Of a stretch of 64,000 nucleotides of DNA, positions 2,401 through 48,189 are shown one piece after another (positions within the stretch are counted from its first letter, which is position 1; each line of letters opens with the position of its first letter). The DNA lies in contig QPGO01000283.1 in the NCBI GenBank assembly GCA_008632985.1, positions 1 to 64,000 of the forward strand, written 5' to 3'. The position numbers were made by a program, and so were the translations under genes. A model generated the notes under the pieces. That model ran no database searches, was not told the DNA's origin, and saw only the letters and a list, made by a program, of their open reading frames with translations. The stretch is from Psammoneis japonica (lineage: Eukaryota).

Positions 2401-2449
2401 AAACTTGGCAAGGTGCCCGTGTCTCCCTTGTGCTTGCCATTCATTGTCA

Positions 2450-2670: not shown

Positions 2671-3056
2671 CCTTGGCTTGCAGGTCTGTCAAACAAATGA
2701 CGACCTTACACTTGAGTTTGCATCATGCAAAAGCACTCAGTCATGCATGCATTGCAGACATGGAGCAATGGCCCCTGTTGATTGATCCAATTGACTGCAA
2801 TTCGAAAGGAGCATGAAATGTTCAGAATCCCTCTGTGTTGAGTGTTGAAACTGATCTTTTCAATGCTCTGGGCAAATGGACAATTCAATCCACTGGCACT
2901 CACAATTTGTGAACTTACTTCACTGCAACAACCAAGCTCTTCATCAGTTCAAAGACCTTGGTGAACATTGTTGGCAGATTCCAATGGTCAGCAGTTGGGT
3001 GTTTTGATGCGCTTCCTCTGGACTGAGGACTGAAACAAAAGAGACAACCAGTTGCA

Positions 3057-4255: not shown

Positions 4256-4440
4256 TGACAGAACATTGAAGGGCAATGATGATGATGACATGAAAGACTC
4301 CCCAAGCACCAGGACTGTGACAACACGAGCACTGGCAAAAGAGAATGAGAGTCAGATCTCAGAGAGATCTGCTTGTCTGTCTAGAATGGTCTGGCATCGT
4401 CCACACACAGTCTGCCCATCCTGCTGTTAGCAGACTGACA
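4256..4440 (-). repeat. 3' LTR of Copia 4256-11330
   Basis: aagggcaatgatgatgatgacatgaaagactc...cagactgaca matches 11160-11330. The adjacent acctcccctg is a PPT on the minus strand. Confidence 0.85.
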
Positions 4441-4499
4441 ACCTCCCCTGATCTGGAATGTCCAAAAGCTGGAAGACAATGCAGATCAACCAATGAACA

Positions 4500-11145: not shown

Positions 11146-11159
11146 ACAAGGCCACAACC
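11146..11159 (-). promoter_or_regulatory. Decayed primer-binding site, half-tRNA-iMet type
   Basis: The minus strand directly after the LTR reads ggttgtggccttg, resembling the copia-type half-tRNAiMet PBS GGTTATGGGCCCAG with a TA>TG change. Confidence 0.5.
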
Positions 11160-11330
11160 TGACAAAATGCCAAAGGGCAATGATGACAATGACATGAAAG
11201 ACTCTCCCTGAGCACTGGGACTGTGACAACATGAGCACCAGCAGAAAAGAATGAGAGGCAGATCATCTGTCTAGAATGGTCTGGCATTGTCCTTGTGCAG
11301 TCTGTCCATCATGCTGTCAGCAGACTAACA
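11160..11330 (-). repeat. 5' LTR of Copia 4256-11330
   Basis: Minus strand runs TGTTAGTCTG...TTTTGTCA and is homologous to 4256-4440. Confidence 0.85.
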
Positions 11331-12199
11331 AAGAATGATGAGCCAACATTAACCAAGAAGATCCAAAAAGACCTCAAGTCCCTCAAGCCATCAGAAGCTC
11401 CTCCTCTCACTGCCACCACAGATGAGATTGAGTCCTCCAATGAAGAATGACTGGCAGAGCAAGGTGACAAGCCTGATTGTGATTGGGGAATCCAGGGTGT
11501 TGCCATCTGCGTGCATCATTTGCTGCATGGTTTACAACTGTGGTTGTGGCTGTGCCACTGTTGGTGGTGCTGCCAATGCAATTTTAGTGGCTGCAACCTG
11601 CAACTGGATCTCAATCACAGTTCATGAATTGTTGAGGGAAGCAAATTGCAAACACTCTTCTGAACAAATTCATTGCCCCAGAGCTCACATCATGTTGCTG
11701 ACAATTGTCATTTTCCATCTCATTGTTTTCTTTGGCAAGAACCCTGACAACCCCAATCTGTGCTGCTTTTCATGATCAAAACATTGGACAAAAGGTAGAA
11801 GATTGATGTGGCAGGCCCAGTCAAGCATGCAATGGACAGGAAAACAATTGATTGATTTGTCTAAAACAAAATCAATCAACTGTCCACAGCCAAACAATCC
11901 CTGAGAGGGAGAATCAGGTGAGCAATTGTGTGAAACACCTTTGCCTTCTGCATCTTGTAGATTGCACTTTGTTTCACATTTCACATTGCAATTGCATTTC
12001 TTGCCCCAGACTGCCTTGTCCTTCTCTGATGCAGTGTCTCTGTCTGGTGGGGCAATGATCTGACATGGTGCACCAATCCACCCACAAAATTCTTGCCCAT
12101 CGTGCCAAAAATTTCTTGATTTTAATTTAAAAACTCTTGCACCCTGTGCCAGAAATCTTAGTTCTGATGTAAATTTTTTGTCACGCATCACAAGAAAAT

Positions 12200-12395
12200 T
12201 CAAACATGACAAACATGCGGATGATGTTCCCGACATTTTCAAGTGCAACACTTGGCTGCTTTTTACCATGAGACAATTGCCTTTTGGCCAATCCCCGATT
12301 CACATTACTCTCAAACTCTGCTTTAAATACAACAAGCACACGGATGATGTTCCCGACATTTTGCAGTGTGACACTTGGTCACTTTTCACCGTGTG
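12200..12395. repeat. Pair of about 70-bp direct repeats at about 125-bp spacing
   Basis: ggatgatgttcccgacatttt...acacttgg occurs at about 12219 and 12342. Confidence 0.7.
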
Positions 12396-13403
12396 ATAAA
12401 TTGTGCTCCAGTCAATGCCTGACTCACATTTCATTTTTGTTGTTGCTGGTGCAGTGAGTTGAATCTTGGTTAATTTCTCTCTGCTGTTGTCACACACTGC
12501 TGTTTGCCAGTGAACATCACTGTTCTGCTGCCCGTGTGTTCATGAGATCCTCATCCGCTTCTGTGGGTTGTTGTTCACTCTGCCTCCTTGAGAACCCATT
12601 CATGTCAAAGCACTGTTGTCAGTGGCTGTTGCTCCCAGAGTCCCCACCTCTGTGTTCCCATGTGCATTGTTCCTTCCTGTTGCTCCCTCTTCCCTGTCAC
12701 TCCCATCAGTTTTCAGAGCAGCCCATCCCTTCATGTCATCCTTCTTTTTCTTCTTTGTTTTCTTGCCACACTTGCTCTCCAATTTCTTTGTTTGCAGGTG
12801 GTGTGCATCGACTCTGCTGTAATCTGTTCTCTCCTGTGCTGCTGCACAGTGTAGCTCGTTGCATTTGTCGATCCCATTCTGGTTCCATCCTTGATTTTGC
12901 TTTGCTCCCTTTCCCTCTGGAATGTGCACTTGGGGGGCCCACCTTTATTTTTTTTGCTAAACGTCCTTTTTTTTGCTGGAGGCAAGCCCAATGTTTACAC
13001 ATGGACATTAATGTGTGTCACATTGGGCAATCAATGCTGATGCCTTATCCATACATAACATTGTAATAAGTGAAAAATGTAAACAGCCGACGCCGTCCCA
13101 TGTGGGAAGATGGCACAGGCTCATCCCTTCAGAACCACTAAATCAACCACCACCACTGTCAGGCATCCACTGCTAGCCCGTGATCAAGACTACCTACATG
13201 TCACAGACGAGTCCGCCAAAACATCGCGCAGAGAAGTGCCGCCACCCCCATATATCCTCGTGGCAGCATACATACACTATATACATTATTTAGCTCCACC
13301 GCAAAAAAAAATACACTGCATGTTGAGTAATATAAAATGTGAGGATCCTATAAGTAACAACACACCTTTGTGCACGAATGTGTTATATTTCAAATTTTCC
13401 ACA

Positions 13404-13790
13404 TGCACTATGCTCGAAGAACGAGTGTAGGGCCCTAAACGAAAGTAGAACGAAGTTCAAAAAGTGAAAATTATGAGAATTATTTCTACGCGATCATTTT
13501 GGGTTTCTCCGAACGGGTTCTCAACAGCCTAAACCTTTTGTACTGCTCCTACAGACAAAAGGCCTTTCGGAGAATACGATCGTGACAACAGATTGTCCGG
13601 ATACGATTGACATTGACACATAAGATGTCAACATCATCGTACAGTCGCATTTGCGATTCTCGACATCCGATCAACTCTGTGTGATTGATCTGTCCTTCGT
13701 ACGAACCCACGATTGACGTACGATTGGAATATAAATTTGTTTTATATATACATATACATATATATAACATACATAACAACGCATGTTGCA
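13404..13790 (-). repeat. 3' LTR of Gypsy A
   Basis: Matches 30329-30707 (taaacgaaagtagaacgaagttcaaaaagtg...). Confidence 0.92.
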
Positions 13791-13816
13791 TTCGTCTCCC
13801 TAATTGCACATTAGAG

Positions 13817-14242
13817 TCAGTCGTTAAACGGTATTATCCGACGGATATTGACAGTGTCAATGACGTCACCGCGTTTGATCTGCACTGTGCCATTAGTGTG
13901 TACCGTTGTTATCACATACGGTCCAACATAGGGCTGTTCTAATTTCTGCGAGTCTTTTTCGAGTAGTATCTTCTCTCCTACTCTGTACGTATAAGGAGTA
14001 TGTCGAGCATTCTCTCGAGCGTTATTTTTATTTATGATTTCTTGTTTTCGCTGCTGGATTAATTTCCAGTCTGCGACATGTTGGACGTTAAATATCATGT
14101 CTCTGTTAAAGACCAAATGTCCAGGTGTAGCTTGCGTAGTGGTATGATAAGTAGAACGTACTGCAAATGCTGCCGCTGACAATGTTCCAGCGAAGGGATC
14201 CTCAGTGTCCAGAGGTGTGTGTTGCAAATCAAGTGTACGAAT
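13817..14242 (-). pseudogene. Gypsy A integrase C-terminus
   Basis: AAAFAVRSTYHTTTQATPGHLVFNRDM...EQPYVGPYVI (GPY/F motif). Continues ...HQVLGNV from 19350. Confidence 0.9.
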
Positions 14243-15147
14243 CAATGGCAATCTTTCGGCTCTCAGAGTCATTCTGGCCAGTGTGGCGGTTAAATTTAAT
14301 TAACACTGATGTGAGAAAACAGAAAATTCTATTTAACACTTTTTTGTCGTGCGACACTTGCAACGCCAAAATTCCGGGTAACTTTCGAAATCAGATCTGC
14401 GATCCGCATTGGACCGCGAAGCAATGGCGCTGCATCGTTTCGCATCATGGGAGGATGCTGAGCCAAATCCCAGTCACCCTTGCATCAGGATCGACTGGTT
14501 GCGGGCCAGCATGTCCACAGGTGAATTTGTTTTTGTGGATTGCCGTGCCACAGTGCTTGAGAACGAAATCAACAACGTTAACAGCGTCTGTGCCAGAGCA
14601 GTTGACGTTGCAGCGAATGGGTTGATGAGAGTCAATCTTTGTCCCACTGACGCGTTCCAGACGTAGGTGGGAATCCGTGTGACATTGGGCCCGTAGAATT
14701 CTACGTGCGAGCTCCGTAGTAAAATTGTGCGGTAATTAGAATGTCAATGTTCGCCAACAGAAAATGAGGCAATTTTGCGAACGCACAAACTCGCACATGA
14801 TTGAAGTACATCGATTTTTACTTGGCCAGTTACATTCTTCAGACATTGAAGAATGTGACTGGCGCATTGTTGTTTCTATGTGTGCGTCATGTAAAACGTC
14901 TGGGGCTTCGCAAAACAGCAAGTCTGGACAATTTTTTTTAAATGTCACACATAGAAATGTACGTGCAAAACACACGACGGATGATAAAAATTATTTGTGT
15001 CACACGTCAGCACTGCGAGCTCCCACCTGGGGCTGGAACGCGTCCACTTTGACCGATGCCATCGGAAGTAGACTGTCAAGTTTTCGATTAACGATGTCTC
15101 ATGAGCGATGCATCCCTGAAGTTCACTAATCAGACTGGAGCCTTTGG

Positions 15148-16190
15148 GTGGCGAAAGACAAGATTGTGGATTTGTCTTTTGTGTTCCACGCCAATCAAAT
15201 TAGGCAGGAGGAGCATTCAGTGCAAGGGATGGAAAGAGCCCGGATTTTTCGATGCAGGCTCAAGGGACCAGATCATTCTGAAATTGCTCATGTCAGAGGT
15301 GAGCTTTTCAAATCCTTTCCATGTGAGCTCGTGTCACATTCGACGTTGTTCGTTGATCCGAGCACCTCGTGTTTGGTGTTTGATGGTGTCTTGGATGTTT
15401 CCAAAGCACTTGTCCAAATCCTCAACTGTGGGCGAGAGTCCACAGGATGATTCTATCGAGACAGGCGGTGCATTCGAATTTCTAATGTGGCATTTGAGTT
15501 CATCCGACGTGCCACTGTTTCAACAAACCCTCGGGATGCGGTGTCAAGAATTCGACATGAGAAGAAGGTGCTGCCCGGCCTCGATGTCAAAAAGGTTCGC
15601 AACGACCGCAAGTTTGATGTTTTGCATTATGAAACAGAGGATCAGCTGACAACCCTGTCCGAACTGTTGGGGGAGTCTGCTGTGGGTGGGTTGCGAGTGA
15701 AACACCGACTCAAAGTTGGCGCCACCACCCACCTCAAGCTGAACGACTGCATCAATCACGTCACTGGCTCTGAAGAAGAGGAATTTGAGTGTCAAAAAAG
15801 AACAACCCATCGTGGCATTGACATTCTCCGCAATCGCCAGGAGACAGTGGTGGAGGTACGATGCGCCCTGTTCATCCTTGACAAGTCGGTCAGGACAGCT
15901 GATTTCCCCAACATGCGATTGCAAAAGCTTGTGCGCTGCCAGAATCCATTTGGAGCCAACAATGGCGATGTGGGTATCAATTTAGATCAGCAGAATCAGC
16001 ATGACACCCTCTTACGACCCGGCATCAAGTTTGATCACGTGGGCAACACGTGCACCATTGAATCGGTGAATGCTGAGGCGGGAGTGGTCAGTGCACGGCT
16101 TTCCAACAGTGTTGACGCACCTGCACAGTTGTTTGACACACCAAGTGCATGTGCGGCAGTCAAAACTAAATGTAACTTAAACAAGCATGC
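15148..16190 (+). pseudogene. Second (accessory) ORF of the DNA transposon, function unknown
   Basis: ORFs 15148-15450 and 15487 onward share a frame and are separated by one TGA. Protein-like composition up to about 16190, tail-to-tail with the transposase. Start and end are approximate. Confidence 0.55.
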
Positions 16191-16392
16191 ATTCCGTCAG
16201 CACCAGTGTCAGTGGCACAACATTTGTTGGCTGGTGCTGCTTGTTGTTCTAAGCGTGAAAATCTTGTTTTTCACCTTCCATCCCAACATTCCCTGCCGGA
16301 TGCACCGACTCGCCATCATGTCCCGACAGCCACATCATTCGTCGTTGAAGCCATTTCGCTGTGGCGCGCAGCTTGGACGCGTTACCTTTCCC

Positions 16393-19145
16393 TCATCCTA
16401 CAGCACCGCCATGATTCGTCCTTTTGAAGAAGAAAGCCTTCAGCATGGCATTCAGATGCTCCCAACCTTGCTGACTGTAAATGCAGAGGTTTCTCCACTT
16501 GAGCATGAATTCTTTCATGTGGCCGCAGCCAAGCATGTGAATGTAATTCGAAAGTCCCTCAACTCCATAGAGATGCGTCCAAATCTGGAAAAAATCATCC
16601 GCTTCAAACTGATGCTCTGCAATGTCGTCATTGGACAGGTCATCTTTGGATCTCATTATTTCTATAGAACGCTCAAGGTGCGGCACACACACTGTCCATT
16701 GGTCTCGACGGTCCTCATCAACAACTGACAGGTGCACCAACTCGTCTATGCCGTCAAATGTTTTTCGAGTTCGTGGATTATCCATGCGCAGCTGCCCAAC
16801 CTCCTTCTTGTTTTCCTTCAAAGGAAATCTCCATTGTGATGGGTTGTCATTGTAGGAAAGGAGAGTCTGGTTGACAATTGACTCAATGCTTTCAACATGA
16901 CGCTTGATGCGTCCCATCGCGCTCCGCACCTCTGGAAAAAGCGAGCCGTCTTCACAGTTTGCAATCCCCTCCTCGAATGACATTGTGAGACATTTGAGTT
17001 TTAGCCGAGTTTCCATGTGTAATGCGCAAGGGATGGCCGACATCAATGCGTAGAATGCCTTTTCATTCGGTTCCACATGTGCCAAATCTTCCTTGAGAGA
17101 GACAAGTAATTTCTCACTGCCGATCCTCTCCCTTGATCGTTGACTTTTGTCTTCCATGGAACCATAAATGCTCATCTGTCTGATGTTCAACTCTCGGTCC
17201 AACAGTTCACCAAAGTTTGTTGCTTCATCCACAGCCTCCGGCTGGAAATCGATCGACAAAGGGTCACGATCGCCTGCTTCCGTTCCTGTTTCAGACATTC
17301 TTATCTTAGTTTTTCCGTCTTCGGGCAACACATCGCCTGTGATTGTTTACAGACGAGCCACCTCCTCGTCCAGTTTCTCAATAAATGTTTCATCACCGAC
17401 ATCTTGGTGGTGGCAACGCCACTCGTCGTCGCCCCCGTGCAATCCTTCGCACCGTTTGCAAAGGTCGTCGTTCGGGACGGCGCAGTTGTCGGATTTGCAT
17501 GGGCAGCATGGGCAAAAGTAATCTTTCACCTTGCAAGCTCCACCTTTGTGAAGGCCCTTTTGATGGGCAATGTGGTCACCCGTGTGTGACACTTTAAGTG
17601 GTTCTTTGTCATCATCCAGAGGTTCCTCCTCGCAGTCGTTCATGAATTTATAGAAATCTTCAAATGGCTCGAAAGTCTCTTTGCTCTCCTGACCTGTCAT
17701 CACTTGAAATGGGAAACAGCGGTGGCTGGATTGTGCTGTTGATACACCGCTTGTGACCACCGAGCTGGTGAGTTTGTCCATAATTTGACACCTGCCGCGA
17801 CGATGTCATCACGCTTGTTCAGTGTCGCGCCATCAACAGCAGCACTCACTTCCACGCGTCTACTGGCTAAATCGTCCCACAGGCCGTGGGCTTTTAACAA
17901 TGTGGTGAGTGTTGGGTTTGGCTCAAATTTGAAGCCTTCGCCATGTTCTGTGTTAACCATTGACATGGATGCTTTCCCGTCTTGCGCCGCAGCCTCGACT
18001 TTTTTTGCTGCGCCGTACAGAGCTTTGGTTGACGGTGTCACACCACGAAAATACCTGGCGCCACCACTTTCCACCAACCGAAGAACCTCCACTCCTGAGT
18101 ATGACAGCTTTGATCCAGCAAGATCCATGGCTCTTAGAAGTTTAGAGGGTGTGAATGCATTCTCCTTAAACCATTTCCGAGACCGCTCGATAACGGGGCT
18201 TTTGAGAATGCCACTGCAGAAGTCGTCTGAGAAAATGGCATCCACCACCATCGTGTTGGTCTTCTTTATCCCGACCTTTTTACATTGGCGGTTTAACCAC
18301 TCTTCTAAAAAGGTTTGTAGTTCTTCCTTTGCATCCACTTCATTGCTTGATGCTTCCTCATCTTCTTCAGATTCTTCTTCTGTTTCTTCATAAGACTCGT
18401 CGTCGTCGTCTTCGTCTTGGCTTGCCTGTGCCACCATCTCTCCTTCCAGAAGCCTCCTTCTCTTTTTCGGGTGACCCTTGTTTTTGCGGTTCATTGCTGC
18501 AATTTTTTCACGGGGAATCACGTCCGATTTGTGGCAGTGCGCTCGACTCTTCGTCTCTAGCTTCTGTGTGGGGCCAATCAACGAGGTGTGATTGGCTTCA
18601 CACCGACACCTCGCGCTGCTGCGCTTTGCCTTGCCGCTAAGGACATGCTTCTCCTTGTCCCACAGGTCACAATGATGGCATAGAAAATGTCCTTGATCTC
18701 GAAATTTAACATGCCTGTTGATGCCACAGTCGCAGCAAGTGACAGCAGCACTGCCCCTTCTTCGAAGCGTGCGACTACGAGCAGACCTAGATGCCGGCAA
18801 ACAAAAGCCACGTGTGATGACTCGTCTGGCTCGGCTTGGCTGCTCTGCACTTGTTCTTGAGGTGGTTGGAGTTGGGGTGACTGCGGCAGAATGTCCAGTG
18901 CTTCGTCCAGCAAGCCTCTTGCTGGCACGCAGTGCAACCGGAGCAGTTGCACTCATCGTATCTCGTGTCTCTTGGTTGGCGCCATTGTCAGCCATGGAAC
19001 CATCGGCATGTTCAGCGCCTCGTCTGTTCTCATCAGAATCTGGGTTCGTAATTTCTACAGGCTCCCACGCAGGATGTGCTGAGGATGTTAACGTCCCGAA
19101 CCCCAATCGGAACACCATCTTAGCCAATTCTATTTCTGCGAACAA
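16393..19145 (-). pseudogene. DDE transposase of RAG1-core/Transib/Chapaev type (frameshift near 17782, in-frame stop at 17347)
   Basis: Motifs in order: AAVDGATL, SSHRCFPFQVMTGQESKETF, HTGDHIA, YFCPCC, IPCALHM, SNYIHMLGCGH, YSQQGWEHLN. The N-terminus has a Cys/His cluster, a basic stretch and an acidic tract. Confidence 0.75.
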
Positions 19146-19349
19146 AAAACGACTTGACTGTAAACTGATCAGGTGTACTTTTCTTCAACCCATTTGCAAA
19201 AATACACCTGACCCGATAACAGTCAAGTCTATTTTTGCAAAAATTGTGTGAACATTAGAGTTTCAGTACAAAAACGTGTAGATTCTACAGACAGCCATGA
19301 GCAATTTTGGCGTTTTCCGTGAGGGGTCATTTTCGAAAGATTCCTATTG

Positions 19350-22030
19350 ACATTTCCGAGCACTTGATGTGCGCGTTCAATAATTGCATTTGCTTGTGGA
19401 TTTCGTGTAGTTATAGGCTTGACTTTAATGCCACAGTCCTCTTGCACCATGTCTTTGAATTGGTGTCCGATGAACTCACTTCCACAGTCACATGCAATTA
19501 ACGATGGCCAGGGGCATCTACTTGACCACGTTCGTTCAGTAATCCAGCTACAGTTGTGGATTCCTTATTTGGGATTTCCACAACTTCAAACCATCCAGTT
19601 GCTGGATCAATCATTGTCAAACATTTCAGGACTGGGGGTTCTTTCTTTCCCTTGTGACGCATTTTGTATGGGCCAACAAGGTCCACACACAGTCGTTCCC
19701 ATGGCACTGATTCTGCGCACTTAGGAGGTAAATGTCCATGTTTCTTGTGTTTCTTTTTGAATTTCTGGCAAGTCTCACATTTCGACACGTATTTTCGTAT
19801 GTCTTCACGTAAGGTGCACCACCACAAGTGTTGTGAGATTGTCTCTTCTGTTCGATTTATGCCAGGATGGAGAAGGTGCGCATGACACCAATCTATCACT
19901 GCTTTTTGCAATGTCTTTGGAACGACGATTTTATCCTTATGACATGTGAGCAACCGGTCTCGCTTGCCTCCATGAAAAGTCTTTGTATGAAATGTCTTGT
20001 TTGACAATTTGGAGAGAATGTCTTTGTCCCGCTTTTGTTCACAATCAAGAACTTTATAATTTGACGGAAAGACATTGTCGTGGGATTTTGGTGGGACCTT
20101 TTCAGCTGATTCTTCTGTGCTGAGGGTTTCCATGGGTTCTATTTTTCTCACAGTGAGTCGGCTGATCGCATCTGCGACAATGTTTGCCTTGCCCTCAAGG
20201 CACATTGTTTTAGGACTGCATTCTTCCATTGTTGGACGCCAACGCATGACTCTGTCTGTTGTAAAATTTTTGTGTGTGAGATTTTTGTGATCCGTGTGTG
20301 TTTGTCTGTTGGCCAAACAGCACATTTCAGAATTGGTCAGTTTTTCTGCACAATGACCGCCCCCAATTGAGAATTGCTCGCATCAGCGTGTGTCTCAAAG
20401 GGTGTGTTGAAATTCGGACATGACAACAATGTGTCTTTGGAGATTGTGCGCTTCACATTTTCGAAGGCTTTTTGTTCTGTTTCGGTCCATTGCCACTTTA
20501 CTTGGGTTGAAGTGAGTTTGGCTAAAGGAGCTAAAACATGAGATCGTCGAGGCCACATGTCTCGACAGCAGTTGATCACACCGACAAAGCATCGCAATTC
20601 CTTGCGAGTCTCAGGAGTTGCGATCGCGTGAATCGCTTCTACCTTTTTTGGAATTGGACTGATGCCATTGCGGGTGACATAGAAGCCTAAGTAGTCTACT
20701 CCGGGTTTAGCAAAAAGGGACTTTTCGGCGTTGACCTTCAATCCAGCTTGTTCTAGGCGTAAAAACACTGTCTCAAGCTTCTTGAGGTGGTCTTGGAAAT
20801 CACCTTTTGTAAGGCACAATGTGTCGTCAATGTAAGTTCTGACGAACTCCAGACCTGCCATGAGCTCACTCATGTGCTCTTGGAAAATGTCTGGAGCTCC
20901 ACAGATTCCCATGGGGAGTGTGCAGTGCTCACATTTGCCCCAAGGCACAACGATCGTGCACAAACGACGTGCATGCGGCGTCAGCTCGATGTGATAGTGT
21001 CCCACATTTAAATCTAGGGATGTTGCACACATGAAACCTTCAAGCTTCTGCAGCACATCCTGAACATTGGGCAGAGGAAACGGAGTGCATGTTAACCTCT
21101 TATTTGGCTCACGAAAGTTGGATGGAAACCGAACTCGACCATTTTTCTTGGGTTGAATAAAGGTTGGAGCAGCCCATTCAGAACAATTTATTTTTCTTAA
21201 GACCTTTAACTTGCACAGTCTTTCAACCTCCTTACGAGCAGTCGCCTCCAAGGCTTGTGGTGCGGGAAATGGTTTGGCATGATGCGGACTCATGCCCGAT
21301 TTCAACTTCAAATCCACCGGTTTCCCGGTCCATTTGCCTAGAGAACCATCGAAAAGGTTTTCAAATCTTTTTAAGAGGAAGTTTAGCTGCTTCTGCTCTT
21401 CAGGAGTTAGATGAGTAGCTGCTGCTGTCACATCATTGAGGTTTGCAGCGTGACAGTCTGAGTCAAGGATCCGATTGACCCCCTGTCATTAAGACTGATC
21501 ACTGCATGAGATTCCTCAATATGATCGGCAATCAACTTAAAAACATCAGCATCGAAGAGTGCACCAACATTCTTCATAGGGGCAGTTGCATCTTCCCATT
21601 TGATCTCTTCATTCGAGAAGTCTGACACCACCCCAAGACTCGACATTAAGTCGCGTCCCATGATCATGTCATGACGACTCCAAGAAGAAGAGGAATTGTC
21701 AACACACGCCGTTGTTTCGATCATCTTATGTTTGTCAAATTCGGGTGAGGAGAATTGGATTTTACATCGACTGTCAGTCGTAAAGAGCCCTCCTTTGGTT
21801 TCCCAGAGTTTGGTGGCGGATGCTTTGGTTCTGAGTTTCCGCGTGAATTTGCGCAAAATTATGGTTGACGATGTTCCGCTGTCGAGGAGAATGGGTAGAG
21901 GCTTATTTTTCGCTTTGCCTAAAGAGGCATTCATGTGGGCGATGACTGCTGGACTAGCATGAGTTATTTTGGCCCTTTTTCCGGGCTTCCCAATGTCCAG
22001 CAATGCGCAAGACTCCTCTTGCGGTGCAAG
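19350..22030 (-). pseudogene. Gypsy A pol (PR, RT, RNase H, integrase)
   Basis: LLDSGTS (PR), EWAAPTFI and RTYIDDTL (RT), THADASNSQLGAVI (RH), HPGINRTE..CETC and CVDLVGPY (INT). Confidence 0.92.
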
Positions 22031-23105
22031 TCATTCCTCGGAATCGCTGTGCGTCAATTTTTCAAATTGACAATTCTCCTCGTCAAGGGTGTCAGAATCA
22101 CAATCTTTGCTCTTGCGCTTCTTGTCGTTGTTCGAAGAACTCGCCTTGAGTATTTTTTGAACTGCTTGGACCACCATGGCATTCAACTCTTCTTTGCGAG
22201 TGGCATTATCGTTATCGCGACGAGACCACGTGCGATTGCCATTTGAACGGCGCCGTTTTGGATCGGGTTCATAGTTCCCACGGTGTTCTTTCGCAAGTCT
22301 TTTAATCGACCAGCACTTGTCCGTGTTATGAGTGGATTTTTCGCACAGAATGCACCACTTATCGGACTGAGATTTTTCGGCACCATGTTGGTGACCATTT
22401 TTGGAACCACTCTTGGCTTTCGATCCAGCACTGCTGATGGGATCAGCCTTGGCATGAATGCCGTCAAATGCGTCCTCCGCGACCTCCAGGCGCTCCAAAA
22501 ACTCAACCAACTCGTCACAGGTGTGTTTCAAAATTTCGAAACCCTGGACGGTCGACTGACGCTGCCACTTGTGAGGTGCAAGGTTGAAGAGGATGTCCTT
22601 GCGCTCGTCCTCCTCGATCTTCTGATCCTTTCCAAAGGGCAGATGGAACATGAGATCTTCATTAACTTCCTGGACCCAGGCAGCAATCTCGCGTACTTTC
22701 ATTGACTCGGGCTTCTTGAGATTGCGACGCAAATAGCGTTTCTGAACCGAAAGTGCGTTCTTGGGAAACACATGCTTCGTGAGGTGTTGCAGACATTTCT
22801 CAAAGCTTCCTTCCGTAGATTCGTCTTCAATGTTCGCCGCCGCATTCTCAAAAGCACGTAGAGCGTCTCCTTGTAGCAACACACGCATGAGACGGAACTT
22901 GTCGACTTGCTCACTGATGTTCTGGCCCACTAGAAGTTGATCGTAGCTCTTGAGGAATTCGATGTACTTTGGGACACCCTGCTTCTTGTGGCACTCGACA
23001 TTGATGGTGCAGGTGCGGCTGTCCTTCTTCTCAGGATGAAAACACTGCTCCATCTTGAGGTGCTGACTCGGTTTGAGGCTCTTCGGCTCAGAATTCGATT
23101 CCAAC
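22031..23105 (-). pseudogene. Gypsy A gag; 5' end split off by the Copia insertion
   Basis: LLQGDALRAF, HVFPKNALSVQKRYLRR and a CCHC knuckle CILCEKSTHNTDKC. Confidence 0.85.
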
Positions 23106-23383
23106 TGACAGGATTTGAATGGGATTTAGGTGCGCACGAAATGTCGCGCGCCATTTAGTTTGCCACGCACAGTTTTGTGTGCTCTTTAGTTCCGCGCATA
23201 CGCGCGCGATGTAGTTTGCTTTCGAGCCACTCGGCTCACAAGAACAATAACAGCAGCCCGATTGTGCTGACTTACACGTCTTTCGGCTCCTGCAACGGTC
23301 TGTGAGCGGAGACTCATCTGCCATTTAGACAGCAGCAAGGAGTCATTGTTTGAATTCTTGCCATTTGCCTTCAATTTCTGTCA
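23106..23383 (+). repeat. 5' LTR of Copia 23106-30217
   Basis: tgacaggatttg...caatttctgtca, repeated at 29940 and 62774. Confidence 0.95.
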
Positions 23384-23400
23384 GATTAACAGTCTTGCTC
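23384..23400 (+). promoter_or_regulatory. Primer-binding site, probably complementary to the anticodon arm of tRNA-Asn (half-tRNA primer)
   Basis: gattaacagtcttgctc directly follows the LTR. Its reverse complement ...GACTGTTAATC is an anticodon stem-loop with GTT. Identical at 63050. Confidence 0.6.
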
Positions 23401-24322
23401 ATTGTCAACCCATTGAGCAACCGCCATCGTCGTCGTTGATTTACCGACGATGCTATTTCAATTCTGCGTGGACCTCCACACACATTCTACGTGTACATCG
23501 GCAAGTCTACGCGCATTCAACACCAGGCATCGGCAGGAATTTAACGTCACCGTCAAGTCTCCTTAACGCTGGACATCTGGATTGATTGTGCTACCTTTTG
23601 TCGCTGAAGACATACATTCAACGGTCACATCCAAGTCTATCCTTGATCCTCATCCCTTGACACACCCATTCAACGGTTAACGGTCAAGAACCCTACACAT
23701 TCAAAGATCTTCGTCGCTGAAGACATTTACACACACATGTCTTCACGGCCAAGAACTTGAACCCACTCTTTGGACTACGGCTTTGCTGCCACTCTACAAG
23801 CACACCGAGTCTATTGTACCTGATCTACCCCGGACCACTGGTGCTCTGCAGTTCTACCAGGTCCACAAGGACAACTGTGAGAGCAAGCAGCCATGATTAC
23901 AGCCTACGTTGGGGCGAGGGTTTTTTCCCGTGTTTGTTCGTTCGTCCACAGTGCCTAACGCCTACGTCAACTGGCCAGCCTGATCGGGAAATCCAACCGA
24001 CATAAAAATAAGAACGGTTCGGGGGTCTTGTCCACCTCTAGTCAGCTTACCTGCAGGGGTTTACAACCCGCTGCTCCGCTTGCAAGCAACCCAAAGCGCC
24101 ACTGGCTGCGGGTTCGGACGTGCTGGCACAACTCTATGGACCGGATAGGAAGTTTAGCACTTGACAACGAACGGGATAGCACACCCTGGCGACTTCTGAT
24201 TTTAAGATAGTTCAAGATTTCAAGTCAAGTCTATTTCAAGTCAAGTCCATTCCCACTCAAGTTTCAAGTCTACCTCCGCGTCCTAACAAGAATCGCTTGT
24301 CCTGACACTGCTTTTGTCTGCC

Positions 24323-27300
24323 ATGGTTCTCACCCGTCAGCAACAAACCGATGGTTTCGAGCACGTTGTTGGAACCGTGCTTGCCCAAGGTGCTGGAAGC
24401 CCTCTTCGTTTGGCTTTGACCCACGACGGCACGGACTCACACCAAGAACTGTTCACGTTCATACCTTCCCAAATCGACTCGCTTGAGTGCGATAATGGCA
24501 CGAATGTGATCCCATTGCCCCAAGGTTATAAGAACATGTTAGCAGCTCTAGTTAGTCTGTACATTGTCAAAGCACACAAGGGCCTTGATGTTGCCAATGA
24601 CTCTTCGTTGTTCACGCATGATGAGTTCCTTGCCTGCCGCCTCAGTCCCGAGTGCATGTCTTCTGTGTCCGTCGGCAGCTCACCTCTTGCACCTCCGCAC
24701 GTCACCAACCCGACCAAGGCACGCGACCCAGTGCAAGACTTCAAGCGAGGCATCAAGCGTGACCCCACTGCTTTCACGGCTCTCAAATCCGACAAACAGT
24801 GGCACACTTGGCACACCTCACTTGTGGCACAAGCCCGTGCCCAAGACGTTGAGTGCATTCTAGACTCATCGTACAAACCGACCAGCCCCGAAGACAAACT
24901 GCTCTTTGCTGAACAGCAAAAGCACATGTTCGCCGTCTTCAAACGCATCCTTCTCACCGACAAGGGCAAAGCTCTCATTCGCGAAAATGTGGGGTCTTCT
25001 GATGCCCAGACCGTCCACCGCGCCTTGTCCGAGCATGCGCTCGCCTCCACCCGCACATCTATCGAGTCCTCCACCTTGCTCACGTACCTCACCATCACAC
25101 GCCTTGGTGATGGCACTTGGAAAGGTCTGACCCACGGGTTCATCCTTCATTGGCAGGATCAGTTGCGCAAGCATGAGGCACTCATCCCGGCCAGTGACCA
25201 CTTCTCTGAAGGACAGAAGCACGTCATGCTCGAAAATGCCACACATCCTGTTGAGGAACTCCGCACCGTCAAGAACCAAGCTGATCAACATCGCACGCAG
25301 AGTGGCAAGAGCCTCACGTACGATCAATGTTGTGGCTTGCTCCTCTCCGCGGCCGCTTAATGCGACAGCACGTTTCAACCCAAGACGACACCTCGAGCTC
25401 CCCGCCGTGCCATGTACGCACACGACGTCTGCTCCGAGGAACCATCTGATGATGTGTTCTATGACATCGACAGCGACATTGACGTCCTGCAGGCTGACGC
25501 TGCCTGCACCCGCGGTCCCAGCCTCATCGGCGACCAATGGAAACGTCTCCCTCCCGACCACCAATGGATTTGGGATTCGTTGCCCCATTCCTCCAAGGCG
25601 ATCATCCTTGAGCATTCTCGTCCGCCTCCTCGCAACCCACGAGCAGTCAACTGCCATGAGTCCATTGCGGTCAACCTTCACGACCAACGACTTGGGAGTG
25701 ATGGTGATGTCAACTTGTCCGCCCCGACTCCAGCGGACTCTGGTGATCCCGCTCCGAATGTGGATGCCACTTCAGACAATCCCATTCTGGTGCATCTCAC
25801 CAAGTGCAAGCCACTGCCACCCGGTGATCTGCAATGCCTGTTGTCTCCTAACCAAGCCCCCAAGGCTAGTCGACCGGGCCCATCCGCCACTCCCTCTACC
25901 TCGCCTGCTCCTCCAGATGACACCAAACTCAATGGCCGCACTTGCCGCTGTGTCAATGACCACAATGTCATTTGCTCTGCCTCTGCTCATTGCTCCACAC
26001 GCACTGGTGCTCCAGTCAATCGTGGAGCCAACGGCGGCATTGCTGGCCATGACATTTGCGTCATTGCACGCACCTCTCGCCAAGTCGACGTTCAGGGCAT
26101 TGACGACCATCAATTGGTGGACATCCCCATTGTCACTGCTGGTGACGTCATTGAGACACAGCGTGGTCCCGTCATCACCATCCTCCATCAGCATGCATGA
26201 ACGGGAAAGGGCAAGACCATTCATTCCTGTGGCCAGCTTGAATGGCACAAACACGATGTCAACGATCGCTCTGTCAAGGTGCCCAATGGCTTGCAGCGCA
26301 TTGCCACCCCTGATGGCCATGTCATCCCAACTGACATCAAAGGTGGCCTGCCTCATGTTGCCATGCGGGCCTACACTGACGATGAATGGGACACCCTGCC
26401 ACATGTCATCCTTGCCGGTGATGACACATGGGACCCTTCCATCCTCGATCACTCTGTCACTGACGACGACCAGTGGTGCGATGCGATCTCTGACCTGCAG
26501 GACGATCCTACCGCCAACCTGTTTGACGAGTGTGGCAACTGCCGTCACCGTGTCATTGTCAACAAGGCCATCATGTCCGCCTCCTTGTCCACCGATCATG
26601 CATCCGCCCTCGATGACCACCTCATTCCGAATGAAGACGTGTTCTACGAGTGTCATCTACACGCGATTGACCCCAAGGACGAGGACGTTCCGCCTCCGGA
26701 GCGCAATGTGCAGCCCAAGGACCCCCCCTGCGAGTCTCTTTTGCCCTGCTTTGGTTTCCAACCCACTGACACGGTTCGTCGTACTTTCGACTGCACCACG
26801 CAATGCGCCCGCATGCCCGCCGGTGTGCACCTTAAGAAGGCCTGCAAATCGCCCAACCCAGCCCTCAATGTGCACCGCCGCAACGAGCCTGTCGCCAGTG
26901 ACACCGTTTGTGCTGACACCCCAGCCGTCGACTCTGGTTGCACCAGCACCCAACTGTTTGTTGGCACCGAGTCTACCGTCACTGATGTCTGCGGCACCAA
27001 AACCCACAAAGAGTTTGTCAACACACTTGAGGATCAGATCCGTGAGCGTGGTGCTCCATCCAAACTCATCAGTGACCGTGCTCAAGTTGAGATCAGCAAC
27101 AAGGTGCTTGGGATTCTACAAGCCCTCTTCATCTCCAGCTGGCAAAGCGAGCCTCACCAGCAACACCAAAACTTTGCCGAACGCTGACACCAGACCATGA
27201 AGCGCATGGCGAACACCATCATGGACTGTTTCGGTTCACCTGCCCACACATGGCTGCTGGTGCTCATGCATGTTTGCTTCATGCTCAACCACACAGCATC

Positions 27301-29935
27301 CCCACGTCTCCACTGGTGCATGCCCCTTGAGACTCTCACTGGCTCCACCCCGGACATCAGCCCGTTGCTTCACTTTCACTGGTGGGAACCCATGTGCTTC
27401 CACCTCGATGACTCCGATTGGCCATCCGAATCCCATGAGTTGCATGGACGCTTTGTTGGCATTGCTGAACACGTCGGCCACCAGATGACCTTTAAGATTC
27501 TCTCTGACGACACTCAGAAGATCCTCCACCGGTCTGATGTACGATCCGCTACCACCGATCCCTCCGTTCGAAACCTGCGTCTTGATCCTCCTGATGGGGA
27601 GCCACCTGAACCCATCATCAAATCTCGCCATGACGACAACCCCGTCAATTCACCTGATGGGGAGATCAGGGCACCCAAGATGCCAGTTTTTGATCCGCAA
27701 GACATCATCGGACGCACCTTCCTCATGCAGCCACAAGAGGACGGACAATGCCACAGAGCTCACATTGTCAAGGCCATCAAAGATCACGACTGGAAAGTCA
27801 ACGGCAACCCCGAGCTCACTAAGTTCGTTTGCTCTGTCAACAACGACGAGTGCGAGGAAGTCCTGGCCTGCAACGACATCATGAATCACATTGAGCAAGA
27901 AGACGAAGACACCACTGTTTGGAAATTCCGACGCATTGTGTCACACGAAGGACCTCTGAAGCCTCATGACCCAACCTGGAAAGGCTCAAGCTACAACATC
28001 ATGCTTGAATGGGAAAGTGGGGAGATCACGTCCGAGCCTCTTGCCATCATTGCCAAGGACGACCCTGTCACCTGCACCATCCATGCACGAGAGAACGGAC
28101 TTCTCGACACTGACAGCTGGAAGCGGTTCCGTGCCATCGCGAGGCGCCAGAAGAAGCTATTCCGCATGGCCAACCAAGCCAAGCTTCACTCCTTCCGCAC
28201 TGCACCTCGCTACAAGTGCGGATGCGAAGTTCCCCGGAACTACAAACATGCCATGTCCCTAGACGAACGCAACGGCAACCGCAAATGGGGAGACGCAACC
28301 AATCTCGAGATGGACCAACTCGATGAATACGAAGTCTTTCATGACTGCGGGCCCTCCGAGTCTTCCACTCCTCCTGCGGGACACAAGAAGATCCGAGTGC
28401 ACCTGGTGTGCGACGTGAAACACGATGGCCGCCACAAGGCACGACTCGTAGATGATGGACACCTCACGGACGTGCCCATCAACAGTGTCTGCTCTGGAGC
28501 AGTGTCCCTTCGTGGCCTTCGGCTGATGATTTTCCTGGCCGAACTCAACGAGTTGGAGACATGGGCCACCAACATTGGCAATGCCCACCTTGAAGCCACC
28601 ACCAAGGAGAAGCTGTACATTGTAGCTGGACCCGAGTTTGGCAAACTCGAAGGCCACATTCTCGTCATCTACAAGGCCCTGCATGGACTGCACAGCTCCG
28701 GCCTCCACTGGCACGAGCGCTTCGGTGATTGCCTGCGAGCTGAAGGTTTCTTCCCCTGCCACGCCGAACCCGACATTTGGATGCGCAGGAACGGCGACCA
28801 CTGCGAATGTGTTGCCGTTTATGTGGATGACCTCGCCATTGCCATGAAGGATCCTCAATCTTTCGTCGATGCTCTCACGGAAAAGCACAAGTTCAAGCTC
28901 AAGGGTGCGGGACCGATTGAGTTCCATCTAGGCTGCGACTTCTCCCGGGATCCTGATGGCACCTTGTGTCTGTCTCCGCGCAAGTACATCGAATGCATGG
29001 TCGACAGCTGCACACGACTGTTTGGGGAGAAACCTGCCACCAAGGTCCTGTCCCCTCTGGAAAAGGGTGACCACCCCGAACTGGACACTTCCGAACTGCT
29101 GGAGCCCGATGGCATTCAACAGTTCCAGTCTCTTGTCGGTTCCCTCCAATGGGCAGTGTCTCTTGGTCGAATTGACATTGCCACGGCCATCATGTCACTC
29201 TCTGGCTTCCGAGCTGCACCCCGTCAAGGCCACTTGGATCGTGCCAAACGCGTCTGTGGGTGCCTCTCCAAGATGCGACACGGCGCTCTCCGCGTTCGCA
29301 CGGAAGAGCCCAACTGTTCGGATCTCCCTGCACCGGCCTATGAATGGATGCATTCCGTGTACGATGAAGCAGAGGAGATGATCCCGAAGGACGCTCCACC
29401 GCCCCTTGGCAAGTTTGTCACTGCCACCCACTACGTTGATGCAAACTTGTGTCATTGCATGCTCACTGGATGCTCTGTCATGGGAATGCTCCACTTCCTC
29501 AACAAATTCCCGGCTGATTGGTTCTCTAAGAAGCAAGCCACCATGGAGACTGCGACCTGCGGGTCTGAATTTGTTGCCGCAAGGACTTGTGTTGAGCAGA
29601 TTATCGACCTCTGCATTGCCTTGCGTTGCCTCGGCATCCCGATCCATGACATTAGTTGTGTGTTCGGTGACAACAAGTTGGTTGTGGACAGTGCCACCAT
29701 CCCGCACTCCAAGTTACACAAGCGACACACCGCATTGTCGTTCCATCGTGTGCGTGAGGCGATTGCCTCTGGTCACCTTGAGTTCCACTTCATCGAAGGC
29801 TCCCGCAACCCTGCTGACATTCTTAGCAAGCATTGGGGTTGCTCCCAAATCTGGGACCTTCTCCGTCCCCTCATGTTTTGGAACTTCATTCCATCCAAAG
29901 TCGAATCTGTTTCTGTGACTCCTCAAGCAAACTGG
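24323..29935 (+). pseudogene. Copia gag-pol with a few stops and frameshifts (near 25360, 26200, 27187)
   Basis: DFKRGIKRDP (gag), VNRGANGG (PR, from DRGANGG), KLISDRAQVE and SEPHQQHQNFAER (INT), KHDGRHKARLV and VYVDDLAI (RT), HYVDAN, VFGDN and NPADILSK (RH). Confidence 0.93.
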
Positions 29936-29939
29936 GGAG

Positions 29940-30217
29940 TGACAGGATTTGAGTGGGATTTAGATGCGCGCGAAATGTCGCGCGCTATTTAGTTTGCCGC
30001 GCACAGTTTTGTGTGCTCTTTAGTTCCGCGCGCACGCGGGCGACGCAGTTTGCTTTCGAGCCACTCGGCTCACAAGAATGACAACAGTAGCCCGATTGTG
30101 CCGACTTACATGTCTTTTGGCTCCTGCAACGGTCTCTGAGCGGAGACTCATCTGCTATTTAGACAGCAGCAAGGAGTTGTTGTTTGAATTCTTGCCATTT
30201 GCCTTCAATTTCTGTCA
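29940..30217 (+). repeat. 3' LTR of Copia 23106-30217
   Basis: Matches 23106-23383 and is followed by the TSD CCAAC. Confidence 0.95.
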
Positions 30218-30328
30218 CCAACGGGGTTGAGGTGCGATTCTCTCCTGCCTTAACGAAGTCTTGGTGTTGGTTGCATGAGGTGAAAGCTTCATCTTGAACT
30301 TGTTATCTTCTGTGGTGTGTGTGCACAA

Positions 30329-30707
30329 TGCACTGTGCTCAAAGAACGAGTGTAAACGAAAGTAGAACGAAGTTCAAAAAGTGAAAATTATGAGAATTAT
30401 TTCTACGCGATCATTTTGGGTTTCTCCGAACGGGTTCTCAACAGCCTAAACCTTTTGCACTGCTCCTACAGACAAAAGGCCTTTGGGAGAATACGATCGT
30501 GACAACAGATTGTCTGGATACGATTGACATTGACACACAAGATGTCAACTTCATCGTACAGTCGCATTTGCGATTCTCGACATCCGATCAACTCTGTGTG
30601 ATTGATCTGTCCTTCGTACGAACCCACGATTGACGTACGATTGGAATATAAATTTATGTTATACATGCATGTGCATATATATGACATACATGACAACGCA
30701 CATTGCA
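30329..30707 (-). repeat. 5' LTR of Gypsy A
   Basis: Matches 13404-13790. Confidence 0.92.
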
Positions 30708-31830: not shown

Positions 31831-33540
31831 TGAGCTGACGATTAACATTCCCACAATCTCTACATTTTAAGATCTTGTTTCTGACATGTCATGGGTGCCA
31901 ACTGCAACCAAGGACACAATCTGTGTTAGCAGGCAAGCCCGCGTCTGTCTCAGTGTTGTTCTCACTGCAATGCATGCACCTGATGAATCATTTTGTACTG
32001 ACATGTTTGCCCACCCTTTTCACAGTGTTGTGGCACCAAAATTTTTCCCTTCGCATCAAACCCAGACCAAAGGTGTGCCTGCCAGCACGTCTGTTGGCCC
32101 TTCTTACTTTTTACTCCCTCTTTTTGAATGCCAAAATTTTCAAATGGCTCAGTTTTAAACATCAATTCTTGAATTTTGCATTTCATTTGATTGGCAGTTT
32201 TTGTCGTTTGCATGGCTTCACATTGCACCAGCAGGTCCACTGCACACTGCATGGTGCACACAATTGACAATGGTGCTGCCACTCATTGCACACCAGATTG
32301 TCCAAATTGCAAGCCAATTTTGTTTTTTGGGCTGCAGCCATGCTTCTAAAAGGGCTGTAATCCGAACACTCCATTTTGCATTTTTGGCAGGCTTGCAACT
32401 GGACTTCCTGCCTTCACTTTGCCGTCTGGCCTCCCATGCTCTTAGCCATCCCTCAGTGCCCGCCAATCCAGAGCATCGTTTGGCCAAGGCCACAGCAGCA
32501 ATTCAAACTTGCTGGGGTTTGGTTTTCCAGTGATTAAAACTTGCTGGGGTTTGGTTTTTTATCTTAGCCCTCCCTCATCATCTTGCTCTTGCCCTTCTTC
32601 CTTCCTCAATGTCATGTCTGGATCTTTCCAACCTGTAAAATTCAAACAAGTGCTCACAGCTGGTGTCCAATCCACTGTTGTGACCCTCTTGGGCAGCATG
32701 GACTCCTGCACAGTGCACCCTCAATCCCATGAGTTTTCATTGTAAAACACCATGTCTCCACCAACTGTGTCGGAGGAAAATGGTTGTCTGTGTGAGGCCA
32801 GGGAACCCTTCCCCTGTTGTGTCCTTCTTCCAGATGAACCACATGCAACATGGTGTTCTTGCCAGTTGTAAACAGATCATGTCTGCAAGATGGCAGATGA
32901 CACACAATTCTTGGGAATCTGCAAGCATTGTCTCCCAACTCGCACGCCACCACAATCGCTGAAGGCAGTTGTCTCCCCTTGCCAATGTGCTGCTGCACAT
33001 TAAAGTGGCTAAAACTGAGCATCAAAGTGACTTTGTCCATGTGTTCCTTGCAATGGACATGTCCAAAGCTCAACCACATCTCCAAAAATGGTTCAACACT
33101 GAACCTTGGATTGTCCAGCCATCCCACAATGATGCAACAATTGCAACTCTGAAAGTCGACACATGGCCTGCTTTTGTCCAGCTCACGATGTAAACCAGAA
33201 AATAAAAATGCACTCTCTGCGCAAATGCTGCACTGGCTTGGCAGTCCGGTGTTTCTGAATTAAAGCAAGCCTTGGGTTGCCATTGTCGCTCCGCATTTTC
33301 ATTGCACTGTCATGCTCAATTGCTTCTTGCAAAGTGTGGGTTGTGTGTCGCCCAATTTGTTTGTTCACTTCATCCATTTTCAACAGAGTTCTCATGTTTT
33401 GAGATAAGAAAAAATGTGTTCTGTGGTGCCTTCCATCGCTGCAAGGCTTCCCAGGCTACCCAGCATGCCCCACTGTTGGCAACTTGAACAGAGCACATTC
33501 AACGCAAGCACCGAGTCTCCATTGCTGTCATTTTGCCCCA

Positions 33541-33967
33541 TGTGTGCACCAGGCGCTGAAAAAGAAGATGTGTTACGACTTTGTCGTTGTGAAAATTATG
33601 AGCTAGTTTAGAGTAGAGAAAATGGGATCATGTGAATAGGGAATCTTGCCAAATCCCTATTCGTTCACATTTGGATCGCATCAAATCGATCGTGCATTCG
33701 CATTGTGGATCGTGCGAATCAAGCCATCACGCGCCATGCACGAGTGATGTCATCGTGTGGAATCACGCTGCCATCGTGGGCCAGACGACGGGCTAGTGTG
33801 CTTCACACGGATGCTCTCTTAGCATCCTTCTGGAATTGCCTGACCTAGAGCCACGCCCTCCTGTGGTCGTGCTTCCCAGGTGCGTGTTAACAACACTGCG
33901 TTGCCACGCACAAGAGGCTCATGCGTGCACGGTCTCGCCGTGTTGTCCAGCAGCGAGGCATGCTGCA
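33541..33967 (-). repeat. 3' LTR of Gypsy B
   Basis: ccaggcgctgaaaaagaagatgtg...gaggcatgctgca matches 44139-44563. Confidence 0.92.
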
Positions 33968-34419: not shown

Positions 34420-34815
34420 TGCAGCAACTCACTCGCACGCTTCTGACACACAGCATTAATTTTGGACATTAGATTAATGTAGCCATTTGAGAGAGGCTCG
34501 CCAGCGTTCGCTAACGCTTGGGCTCCCCTCTCTTCGGTCTACTCACTTCTTTGTTTTGACATCAGTTTCAGCTTGAGCTTGCACTGTAATTACAGTCGAT
34601 TGTAAAGAGCTGAATGAGAAACAACGATGCAACTAACAGGCTTACGAAACAAGAGAAAAGAACATTGAGAGCGAAGGCAGCGAATTGGGCTTTGGAACAA
34701 AAACGGCAAAAGGAGACACGAAAACAATGCGAACAGGATTTGGCGATTCGGGTTGCACAACTCGAGTCGAAGGTAGAGTGCTTGAAGCAGTTTCTTGGAG
34801 GACCAACTTGGCCTG

Positions 34816-39578: not shown

Positions 39579-39865
39579 TCAGGGGGTTTTCTTCCCAACA
39601 CCTGGGTTTCCTCCTGTCATTGTCTTTACTTTTGGTTTTGGTCCTTGGTTTTTGGCCCTTTGCATGATCCTCCAGTTCTTTCGGATCATGGAAGGGAAGA
39701 GTGCAGCAACTCACTCGCACGCTTCTGATGTGTGGCATTAATTTTGGACATTAGATTGACGCAGCCGTTTGAGAGAGGCTCGCCAGCGTTCGCTGATGCT
39801 CAGGCTCCCCTCTCTTCGGTCTGCTCACTTCTTTGTTTTGACATCAGTTTCAGCTTGAGCTTGCA

Positions 39866-48130: not shown

Positions 48131-48189
48131 CCTTCCCTCTGCTTCTCATGTGTCTCAGGTGGGATGGCAACAATGTTGTTCATCTCATG

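Follow-up and report, generated by a model that had tools for sequence, protein, structure and literature searches.

Long terminal repeat pairs point to loss of TpA dinucleotides, alongside CpG decay, in integrated retrotransposons of Psammoneis japonica

Hypermutation directed at TpA dinucleotides in integrated foreign DNA has been described in the alga Bigelowiella natans. In mutation-accumulation lines, 231 of 302 nuclear mutations fell within two integrated viral regions (nucleocytoplasmic large DNA virus, NCLDV, and virophage). All but one of these 231 (230) were A>G or T>C changes, and every one of the 230 lay at TpA. Hypermutation was seen in only some lines. The B. natans clusters are depleted in TpA and enriched in CpA and TpG, reverse transcriptase (RT) and DDE domains are over-represented in them, and an ADAT2-like DNA adenine deaminase was proposed (Mettrop et al., bioRxiv 10.64898/2026.01.13.699255). 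This study of one alga was the only account of such a process returned by our full-text literature searches, and its main text makes no mention of LTR (long terminal repeat), retrotransposon, Copia or CpG. Here we analyzed a stretch of 64,000 nucleotides from Psammoneis japonica (assembly GCA_008632985.1, contig QPGO01000283.1, positions 1 to 64,000), referred to as the window, which is a pile of nested LTR retrotransposons. Comparing the LTRs of its elements led us to conclude, with a probability of roughly 85%, that this genome keeps converting TpA to CpA or TpG in integrated elements, beside the usual decay of CpG to TpG or CpA.

Four elements in the window retain LTR pairs: Gypsy A, a Copia nested within it, Gypsy B, and Gypsy D, which is nested within Gypsy B (Table 1). 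The three LTR cores delimited by BLAST (Gypsy A, Copia and Gypsy B) provided 1048 aligned columns, containing 47 transitions and 5 transversions. Pyrimidine-purine (YpR) dinucleotides, which cover 53-55% of positions, accounted for 45 of the 47 transitions (binomial p=2.7e-10), leaving 2 elsewhere. By dinucleotide, the mismatches comprised 20 pairs of TA with CA or TG, 13 pairs of CG with TG or CA, and 6 swaps of TG with CA, while CG was never paired with TA (0). Conserved sites numbered 33 for TA, 61 for CG, 70 for CA, and 77 for TG. Full-length LTRs contained 17 mismatches in 379 columns for Gypsy A, 21 in 278 for Copia, 22 in 430 for Gypsy B, and 15 in 164 for Gypsy D; all 15 of the latter were transitions at YpR. 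Over five alignments, the share of sites that differed between copies was approximately 38% for TA and 21% for CG.

An uneven spread of mismatches over sequence contexts had been expected in the original prediction, and the count above agrees. The strings quoted there were all found in place. Seven positions distinguish the Gypsy A 35-mers at 13743-13777 and 30660-30694, all with TA in the former and CA or TG in the latter. The Gypsy B edges at 33541 (tgtgtgcacc) and 44139 (tgcatgtgcc) differ by TG/CA swaps, the pair cagcagcg/cagtggcg is present, and three Copia 16-mers were located at 23241, about 30075, and about 62907.

As a mismatch between two copies is symmetric, its direction must come from other evidence. 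Four lines agree in supporting changes that run from TA to CA or TG, together with ordinary decay of CG to TG or CA. A second Copia copy (Copia2) supplied an outgroup LTR that polarised all 21 mismatches of the nested Copia pair. These comprised 6 TA>CA, 1 TA>TG, 3 CG>CA, 3 CG>TG, 2 TG>CG, 1 TG>TA, 1 CA>TA, 2 other transitions, and 2 transversions, with one TG>CG and one TG>TA forming a tandem TG>CA. The inferred ancestral LTR contained 11 TA, 7 of which were lost to CA or TG, and 23 CG, 6 of which were lost likewise. Per site and copy, TA loss was thus about 2.4 times CG loss.

We also polarised changes using the majority state of each family. Contigs from a public sequencing run of the same organism (X1; 141 million letters in total) were aligned to 13968-33967 at 80% likeness (n=19,853), and the 40 best-supported of 2202 variable places were inspected. 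Among these 40, the window copy showed TA>TG or TA>CA at five (14727, 14729, 14857, 14880, and 23836), TG>TA at one (20681), CG>TG or CG>CA at six, and one tandem TG>CA (28114-28115); the rest were other changes or sites with a low family share. An old Copia copy (57553-61523) aligned to the young Copia over 3948 columns at 73% identity. Where the young element has TA (37 sites), the old copy kept TA at 6 and had CA or TG at 22, with the reverse arrangement at 5. Where the young element has CG (225 sites), the old copy kept CG at 18 and had CA or TG at 166, with the reverse at 23. Per ancestral site, the rate of TA loss was about double that of CG and tens of times that of other positions.

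The TG/CA swaps had been attributed to an ancestral TA. In the three-LTR Copia alignment, the third state was TA at all three sites with three states and CG at none. Adding two old Copia LTRs gave CA or TG at two of these sites and a gap at the third, and again never CG. TA is therefore a real source of swaps. About 40% of YpR mismatches are plain CpG decay, however, so not every swap need descend from TA. CG is probably a further source, CpG decay being about as common in absolute numbers. The direction proposed in the original prediction is likewise borne out by polarisation, by the old copy, and by composition, with CG decay to be added alongside it.

Dinucleotide composition was skewed across the window, where the observed/expected ratio (O/E) of TpA was 0.23. 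Young elements had TpA O/E of 0.29-0.40, and old relics and flanks 0.10-0.12 (0.04-0.15 in 1-kb intervals). CpG O/E fell from 0.82-0.93 in young elements to 0.16-0.20 in old flanks, was 0.16-0.23 in old copies, and ranged over 0.06-0.35 across old relics. The O/E of CpA and TpG was 1.6-1.9, and about 1.8 in old relics. Of the 64 1-kb intervals, 56 had TpA O/E at or below 0.43, and 37 of 64 also had CpA+TpG at or above 1.52. Runs of intervals both depleted in TpA and enriched in CpA+TpG were continuous at 1-13000 and 45001-63000. TpA/ApT was 0.10-0.40 and (CpA+TpG)/(ApC+GpT) was 1.38-1.96; the corresponding index thresholds for fungal repeat-induced point mutation (RIP) are about 0.89 and 1.03. 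Related Copia loci from metagenomes had TpA O/E of 0.60-0.98 in 25 of 25 cases, which makes the depletion a property of the host rather than of this Copia clade.

Depletion was patchy at the kilobase scale. Islands of normal TpA occurred at 41751-43000 (O/E 0.9-1.3) and 13251-14000 (O/E 0.7-1.25). The former covers the Gypsy B protease and the start of its RT, and CpA+TpG drops to 0.61 there.

The original prediction placed the LTR differences after integration, which accords with the target site duplications (TSDs) that flank all four LTR pairs (Table 1). Since both LTRs are copied from one template and a TSD brackets each pair, the differences originated in chromosomal DNA or during the final step of complementary DNA (cDNA) synthesis. 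Derived changes were present in both LTRs of a pair, and CA-type and TG-type changes occurred within one LTR, which argues against editing of a single cDNA strand. In dead relics, TA goes on declining towards zero. Assembly error is an unlikely source of the pattern, as five X1 short-read contigs (542-1447 bases) agreed with unique window sequence at every position (0 differences), and the removal of 90% of TAs is beyond any error model.

The LTRs of the nested elements (Copia and Gypsy D) differed at 36 of 442 columns and those of the hosts (Gypsy A and Gypsy B) at 39 of 809 (Fisher p=0.024). Nested elements cannot be older than the elements that host them. Gypsy A was lopsided, with 11 of 12 inferred hits in its 5' LTR. 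Taken with the patchy depletion, these small numbers suggest uneven, possibly targeted or episodic activity. Intensity seems to vary from element to element and even within an LTR pair, as would suit targeted or episodic activity better than a uniform clock.

Several observations weigh against continued TA loss in integrated elements, or against its likeness to the B. natans process. Changes that create TA were also polarised, namely CA>TA and TG>TA once each in the Copia LTR pair, and TG>TA at one family-majority site. None (0) of the 40 best-supported of the 2202 family-majority places lies in any Gypsy LTR, and a sensitive BLAST of the window turned up no other copy of a Gypsy A, B, or D LTR that could act as an outgroup. 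The direction of the Gypsy A and Gypsy B mismatches is consequently drawn from the general evidence, and the lopsidedness of Gypsy A fits C>T changes in its 3' LTR equally well if the direction is reversed there. The 68 scanned flank open reading frames (ORFs) gave only transposon domains, and the window offers no host gene as a native-DNA contrast. The spectrum, unlike that reported in the B. natans account, is not restricted to AT>GC, as CpG decay is co-dominant (6 of 21 polarised changes; 13 CG-type and 20 TA-type mismatches). Finally, TG/CA swaps were more frequent (6 in the cores, 9 in the full LTRs) than the approximately 1.8 expected from independent double hits, an expectation estimated from the core dinucleotide counts (Poisson p 0.01 to 1e-4). 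This excess could reflect hot sites, two-step paths via unstable TA or CG, or coupled events.

In three places, (CA)n in one copy is aligned with (TG)n in its counterpart, including about 23477-23484 versus 63143-63150 and 34447-34452 versus 39729-39734. These facing tracts consist entirely of transitions, the outcome that conversion of an alternating TA (or CG) tract along opposite strands in the two copies would give. Neighboring events within 10 bases in the same copy were of the same type in 18 cases and of different type in 11, a hand tally that is not significant. Directly abutting dinucleotides gave 13 same and 3 different, but these counts come from microsatellite-like tracts and lack independence. 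Regarding flanking bases, RTAY sites differed at 11 of 24 and YTAR sites at 5 of 25 (p=0.07), and old relics retained TA best in TTAA and CTAA/TTAG; both are suggestive only. CA-type and TG-type changes showed no consistent transcribed-strand bias between elements.

If the mismatches instead arose by RIP-like deamination of cytosine in repeated DNA (CpA>TpA and TpG>TpA), the TA-bearing copies would be the mutated ones. Without an outgroup, a TA/CA mismatch is compatible with either direction, one Gypsy A LTR holds TA at 9 of 10 TA-type differences, and three of the events noted above (one CA>TA, two TG>TA) run this way. We nonetheless consider such an origin extremely unlikely, given that polarised events at single sites numbered 12 for TA>CA/TG and 2 for CA>TA/TG>TA (binomial p=0.013), that old copies are TA-poor (O/E 0.07-0.12), and that the RIP indices are reversed. 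Ordinary decay of methylated CG, with TA playing no special part, would have to generate the swaps and all other YpR mismatches by itself. Its contribution is evident in 6 of the 21 polarised Copia LTR changes, in 13 of the 39 YpR dinucleotide mismatches of the three cores, and in the low CpG O/E of old copies. As a sole cause it is very unlikely: the 20 mismatches between TA and CA or TG are unreachable from CG in one step, no CG/TA mismatch was seen, the third state was TA and never CG at the three-state sites, and a TpA O/E of 0.04-0.15 is not derivable from CpG decay.

Two other explanations concern timing. An ADAR-like or APOBEC-like enzyme might have acted on element RNA or cDNA, such that the changes were never chromosomal. 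Mettrop et al. cite a preference of ADAR-type enzymes for a 5' U, and differences between copies, such as Copia and Copia2, could partly arise in this manner. Yet the LTRs of four TSD-bearing elements differ despite a single template for each pair, the derived changes are distributed over both LTRs and both types as described above, and relics that are dead and non-autonomous keep losing TA, making pre-integration editing very improbable as well. Alternatively, the LTR differences may have been brought in by ectopic gene conversion or recombination among diverged family copies. In that case the pairs would give no timing for the mutations, though TA would still have been lost somewhere in the family. 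Copia copies are extremely numerous, certain derived states recur in 4-22% of family contig depth, and conversion between LTRs could also make host LTRs less diverged than nested ones. Against this, derived states at the best-supported sites were private or nearly so (the other letter had a family share of 0.78-1.0), mismatches were scattered single sites and not tracts, and the same spectrum appeared in the low-copy Gypsy A and D LTRs. We regard this explanation as unlikely.

With chromosomal TA loss beside CpG decay as the preferred reading, the underlying event would be a transition within the palindromic TA dinucleotide, T>C or A>G, after element integration, while the usual CpG decay to TpG or CpA proceeds beside it. 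The process would be of one kind with the hypermutation reported for B. natans, which is specific to TpA in integrated foreign DNA. Enzymatic editing of silenced DNA is the most likely cause. It could proceed through deamination of adenine to inosine at TpA, as Mettrop et al. propose, or through a mutagenic modification of thymine at TpA. The CpG part most likely stems from deamination of 5-methylcytosine.

A more far-reaching interpretation is possible but doubtful. Here, the window would represent a second, independent case of TpA-directed DNA editing, in which dual erosion of TA and CG leaves CA and TG as the sole YpR steps. The activity would come in bursts aimed at particular elements and work on one strand at a time, as an "anti-RIP" defence. 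Its agent would be an adenine deaminase acting processively on single-strand DNA, or an enzyme that modifies thymine, brought in by silencing. Element-aimed bursts would allow younger nested insertions to become more diverged than their hosts and one LTR to take nearly all hits. Conversion along one strand at a time would place (CA)n opposite (TG)n, as at the three facing tracts.

Table 1. Features of the window, with coordinates, strand, and distinguishing properties
Feature	Coordinates	Strand	Properties
Gypsy A 3' LTR	13404..13790	-	TA-rich; TA kept at 9/10 TA-type differences with its partner
Gypsy A 5' LTR	30329..30707	-	CA/TG state at 9/10 TA-type and 2/2 CG-type differences
Gypsy A probable 4-bp TSD	13400-13403 / 30708-30711		CACA / CACG; one CA/CG difference
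Gypsy A internal region	13791..23105	-	RVT_1, RT_RNaseH_2, Integrase_H2C2
Nested Copia 5' LTR	23106..23383	+	TG...CA; TSD CCAAC 23101-23105
Nested Copia internal region	23384..29939	+	RVT_2; very high-copy family
Nested Copia 3' LTR	29940..30217	+	TSD CCAAC 30218-30222 (perfect TSD)
Gypsy B 3' LTR	33534..33967	-	TSD ATTT 33530-33533
Gypsy B 5' LTR	44132..44563	-	TSD ATTT 44564-44567
Gypsy B protease, RT, RNase H, integrase	39850-42994	-	Pfam scan
Gypsy B ORF without Pfam match	42995-43945	-	Occupies the expected gag position, ahead of protease
Gypsy D 5' LTR (164 bp)	34420..34583	+	TSD TCCTG 34415-34419
Gypsy D 3' LTR (164 bp)	39702..39865	+	TSD TCCTG 39866-39870 (perfect TSD)
Gypsy D RT, RNase H, integrase	36348-39578	+	Pfam
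Second Copia copy (Copia2)	62774..64000	+	5' LTR 62774-63049 and internal start; cut by window end; outgroup
Old transposon relics	1..13000	.	gag_pre-integrs remnant; TpA O/E 0.04-0.22, CpG 0.06-0.28, CpA+TpG 1.75-1.92
Old transposon relics	44600..62700	.	TpA O/E 0.05-0.15
Old Copia copy	57553-61523	-	Within the 44600..62700 relics
Old Copia LTRs	49220-49444 and 57522-57748		Within the 44600..62700 relics

The structure in Table 1 was assembled from self-BLAST of the window and Pfam scans. Self-BLAST returned the LTR pairs 13436-13790/30353-30707, 23106-23383/29940-30217, and 33549-33967/44147-44563, as well as the second Copia copy at 62773-64000; the bounds tabulated for Gypsy A and Gypsy B are corrected to full length. 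Hallmarks of Ty1/Copia and Ty3/Gypsy elements were present, including direct LTRs ending in TG...CA, TSDs, and pol domains in family order (RVT_2 in Copia; RVP, RVT_1, RT_RNaseH, Integrase_H2C2, and rve in the Gypsy elements). Gypsy D (34420-39865) had been missed in the original prediction. Its placement as a plus-strand element nested in Gypsy B identifies Gypsy B as a minus-strand element. The nested Copia lies 111 bases from the Gypsy A 5' LTR. In one X1 contig, Gypsy A sequence runs on through the Copia insertion site (23103 / 30226), so this Copia is missing from other Gypsy A copies, which confirms it as a later insertion. The Copia polymerase was 65% identical to its best match among 5.8 billion proteins. 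Summed contig word depth for the Copia family was 40,000-120,000, compared to about 120-170 in unique parts. Rfam and tRNA scans found no RNA genes in the window.

Part of Gypsy A was absent from its relatives. Contigs of other family copies skip 14236-19353 (5.1 kb), with joints from 14135/14236 to 19353, and this segment is at single-copy depth (about 120-165, compared to about 7000 in the adjoining part). It carries long ORFs without a Pfam match and is TA-poor too (O/E 0.16-0.35). Within it, 14690-14938 is a separate, very high-copy embedded repeat, whose summed contig word depth (about 80,000) greatly exceeded that of the remaining Gypsy A sequence.

Loss of TA also shapes the reading frames of the flanks. 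In 1-13400 and 44600-62700, TAA and TAG stops occurred at 4.6-6.0 per kb and TGA at 25-27 per kb. With TA nearly gone, TAA and TAG stops are rare, resulting in long stop-free frames. Such frames occur on both strands of these regions without a domain match; over the 68 flank ORFs, gag_pre-integrs and RVT_2 were the only Pfam domains. Gene finders will over-call long false ORFs in relics of this kind.

LTR pairs serve as a natural before-and-after experiment, in which the loss of TA in the chromosome after integration becomes visible without culture work. They also yield the relative rates of TA and CG loss. Because two hypermutable dinucleotides account for about 85% of LTR mismatches, and because nested elements look older than their hosts, dating by LTR divergence is invalid in this genome. 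TA loss reaches retrotransposons, a target that the main text of the sole published account does not examine. Should the enzyme prove to be a natural TpA-specific DNA adenine deaminase, it would be of interest for genome-defence biology and for base editing.

Several known systems share features with the changes seen here. Like fungal RIP, they amount to dinucleotide-specific transition hypermutation that degrades transposons in the genome, and neighboring hits may share a strand. RIP, however, makes TpA from CpA, whereas here TpA is destroyed and no TpA excess is present. Single-copy parts of Gypsy A are TA-poor too, and a dependence on repeats is thus without support. Deamination of 5-methylcytosine, as in vertebrate, plant, and many protist transposons, would explain the CG>TG/CA share and the low CpG O/E but not the loss of TA. 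ADAR hyperediting and APOBEC3 resemble the present case in producing clustered deaminase transitions with a neighbor preference against retroelements. Their substrates are pre-integration RNA or cDNA and they affect the two LTRs equally, while here the two LTRs differ.

In dinoflagellates, 5-hydroxymethyluracil (5hmU) is enriched in transposons, with earlier work placing it preferentially at TA and TC (passages of PMC11572971). This thymine modification offers a possible route to T>C at TpA, although those passages report no mutagenic effect. We rejected dinoflagellate 5hmU as the mechanism and kept it only as possible chemistry, as the 141 million letters of X1 contigs are few for a typical dinoflagellate genome and nothing ties the window to dinoflagellates.

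The closest likeness is with B. natans, as far as the account of Mettrop et al. describes it. Both cases feature TpA>TpG/CpA transitions in chromosomal DNA of foreign origin, which the polarised changes document here, and long-term clusters of TpA depletion with CpA+TpG enrichment. The uneven, apparently regulated activity of B. natans may have a parallel here. They differ in target, which is LTR retrotransposons here, in the type of evidence (LTR pairs here, mutation-accumulation lines there), and in depth, with TpA O/E of 0.04-0.15 here compared to 0.45 for the NCLDV region. Our data support the same signature as in B. natans, now in LTR retrotransposons, with deeper TpA depletion and with CpG decay.

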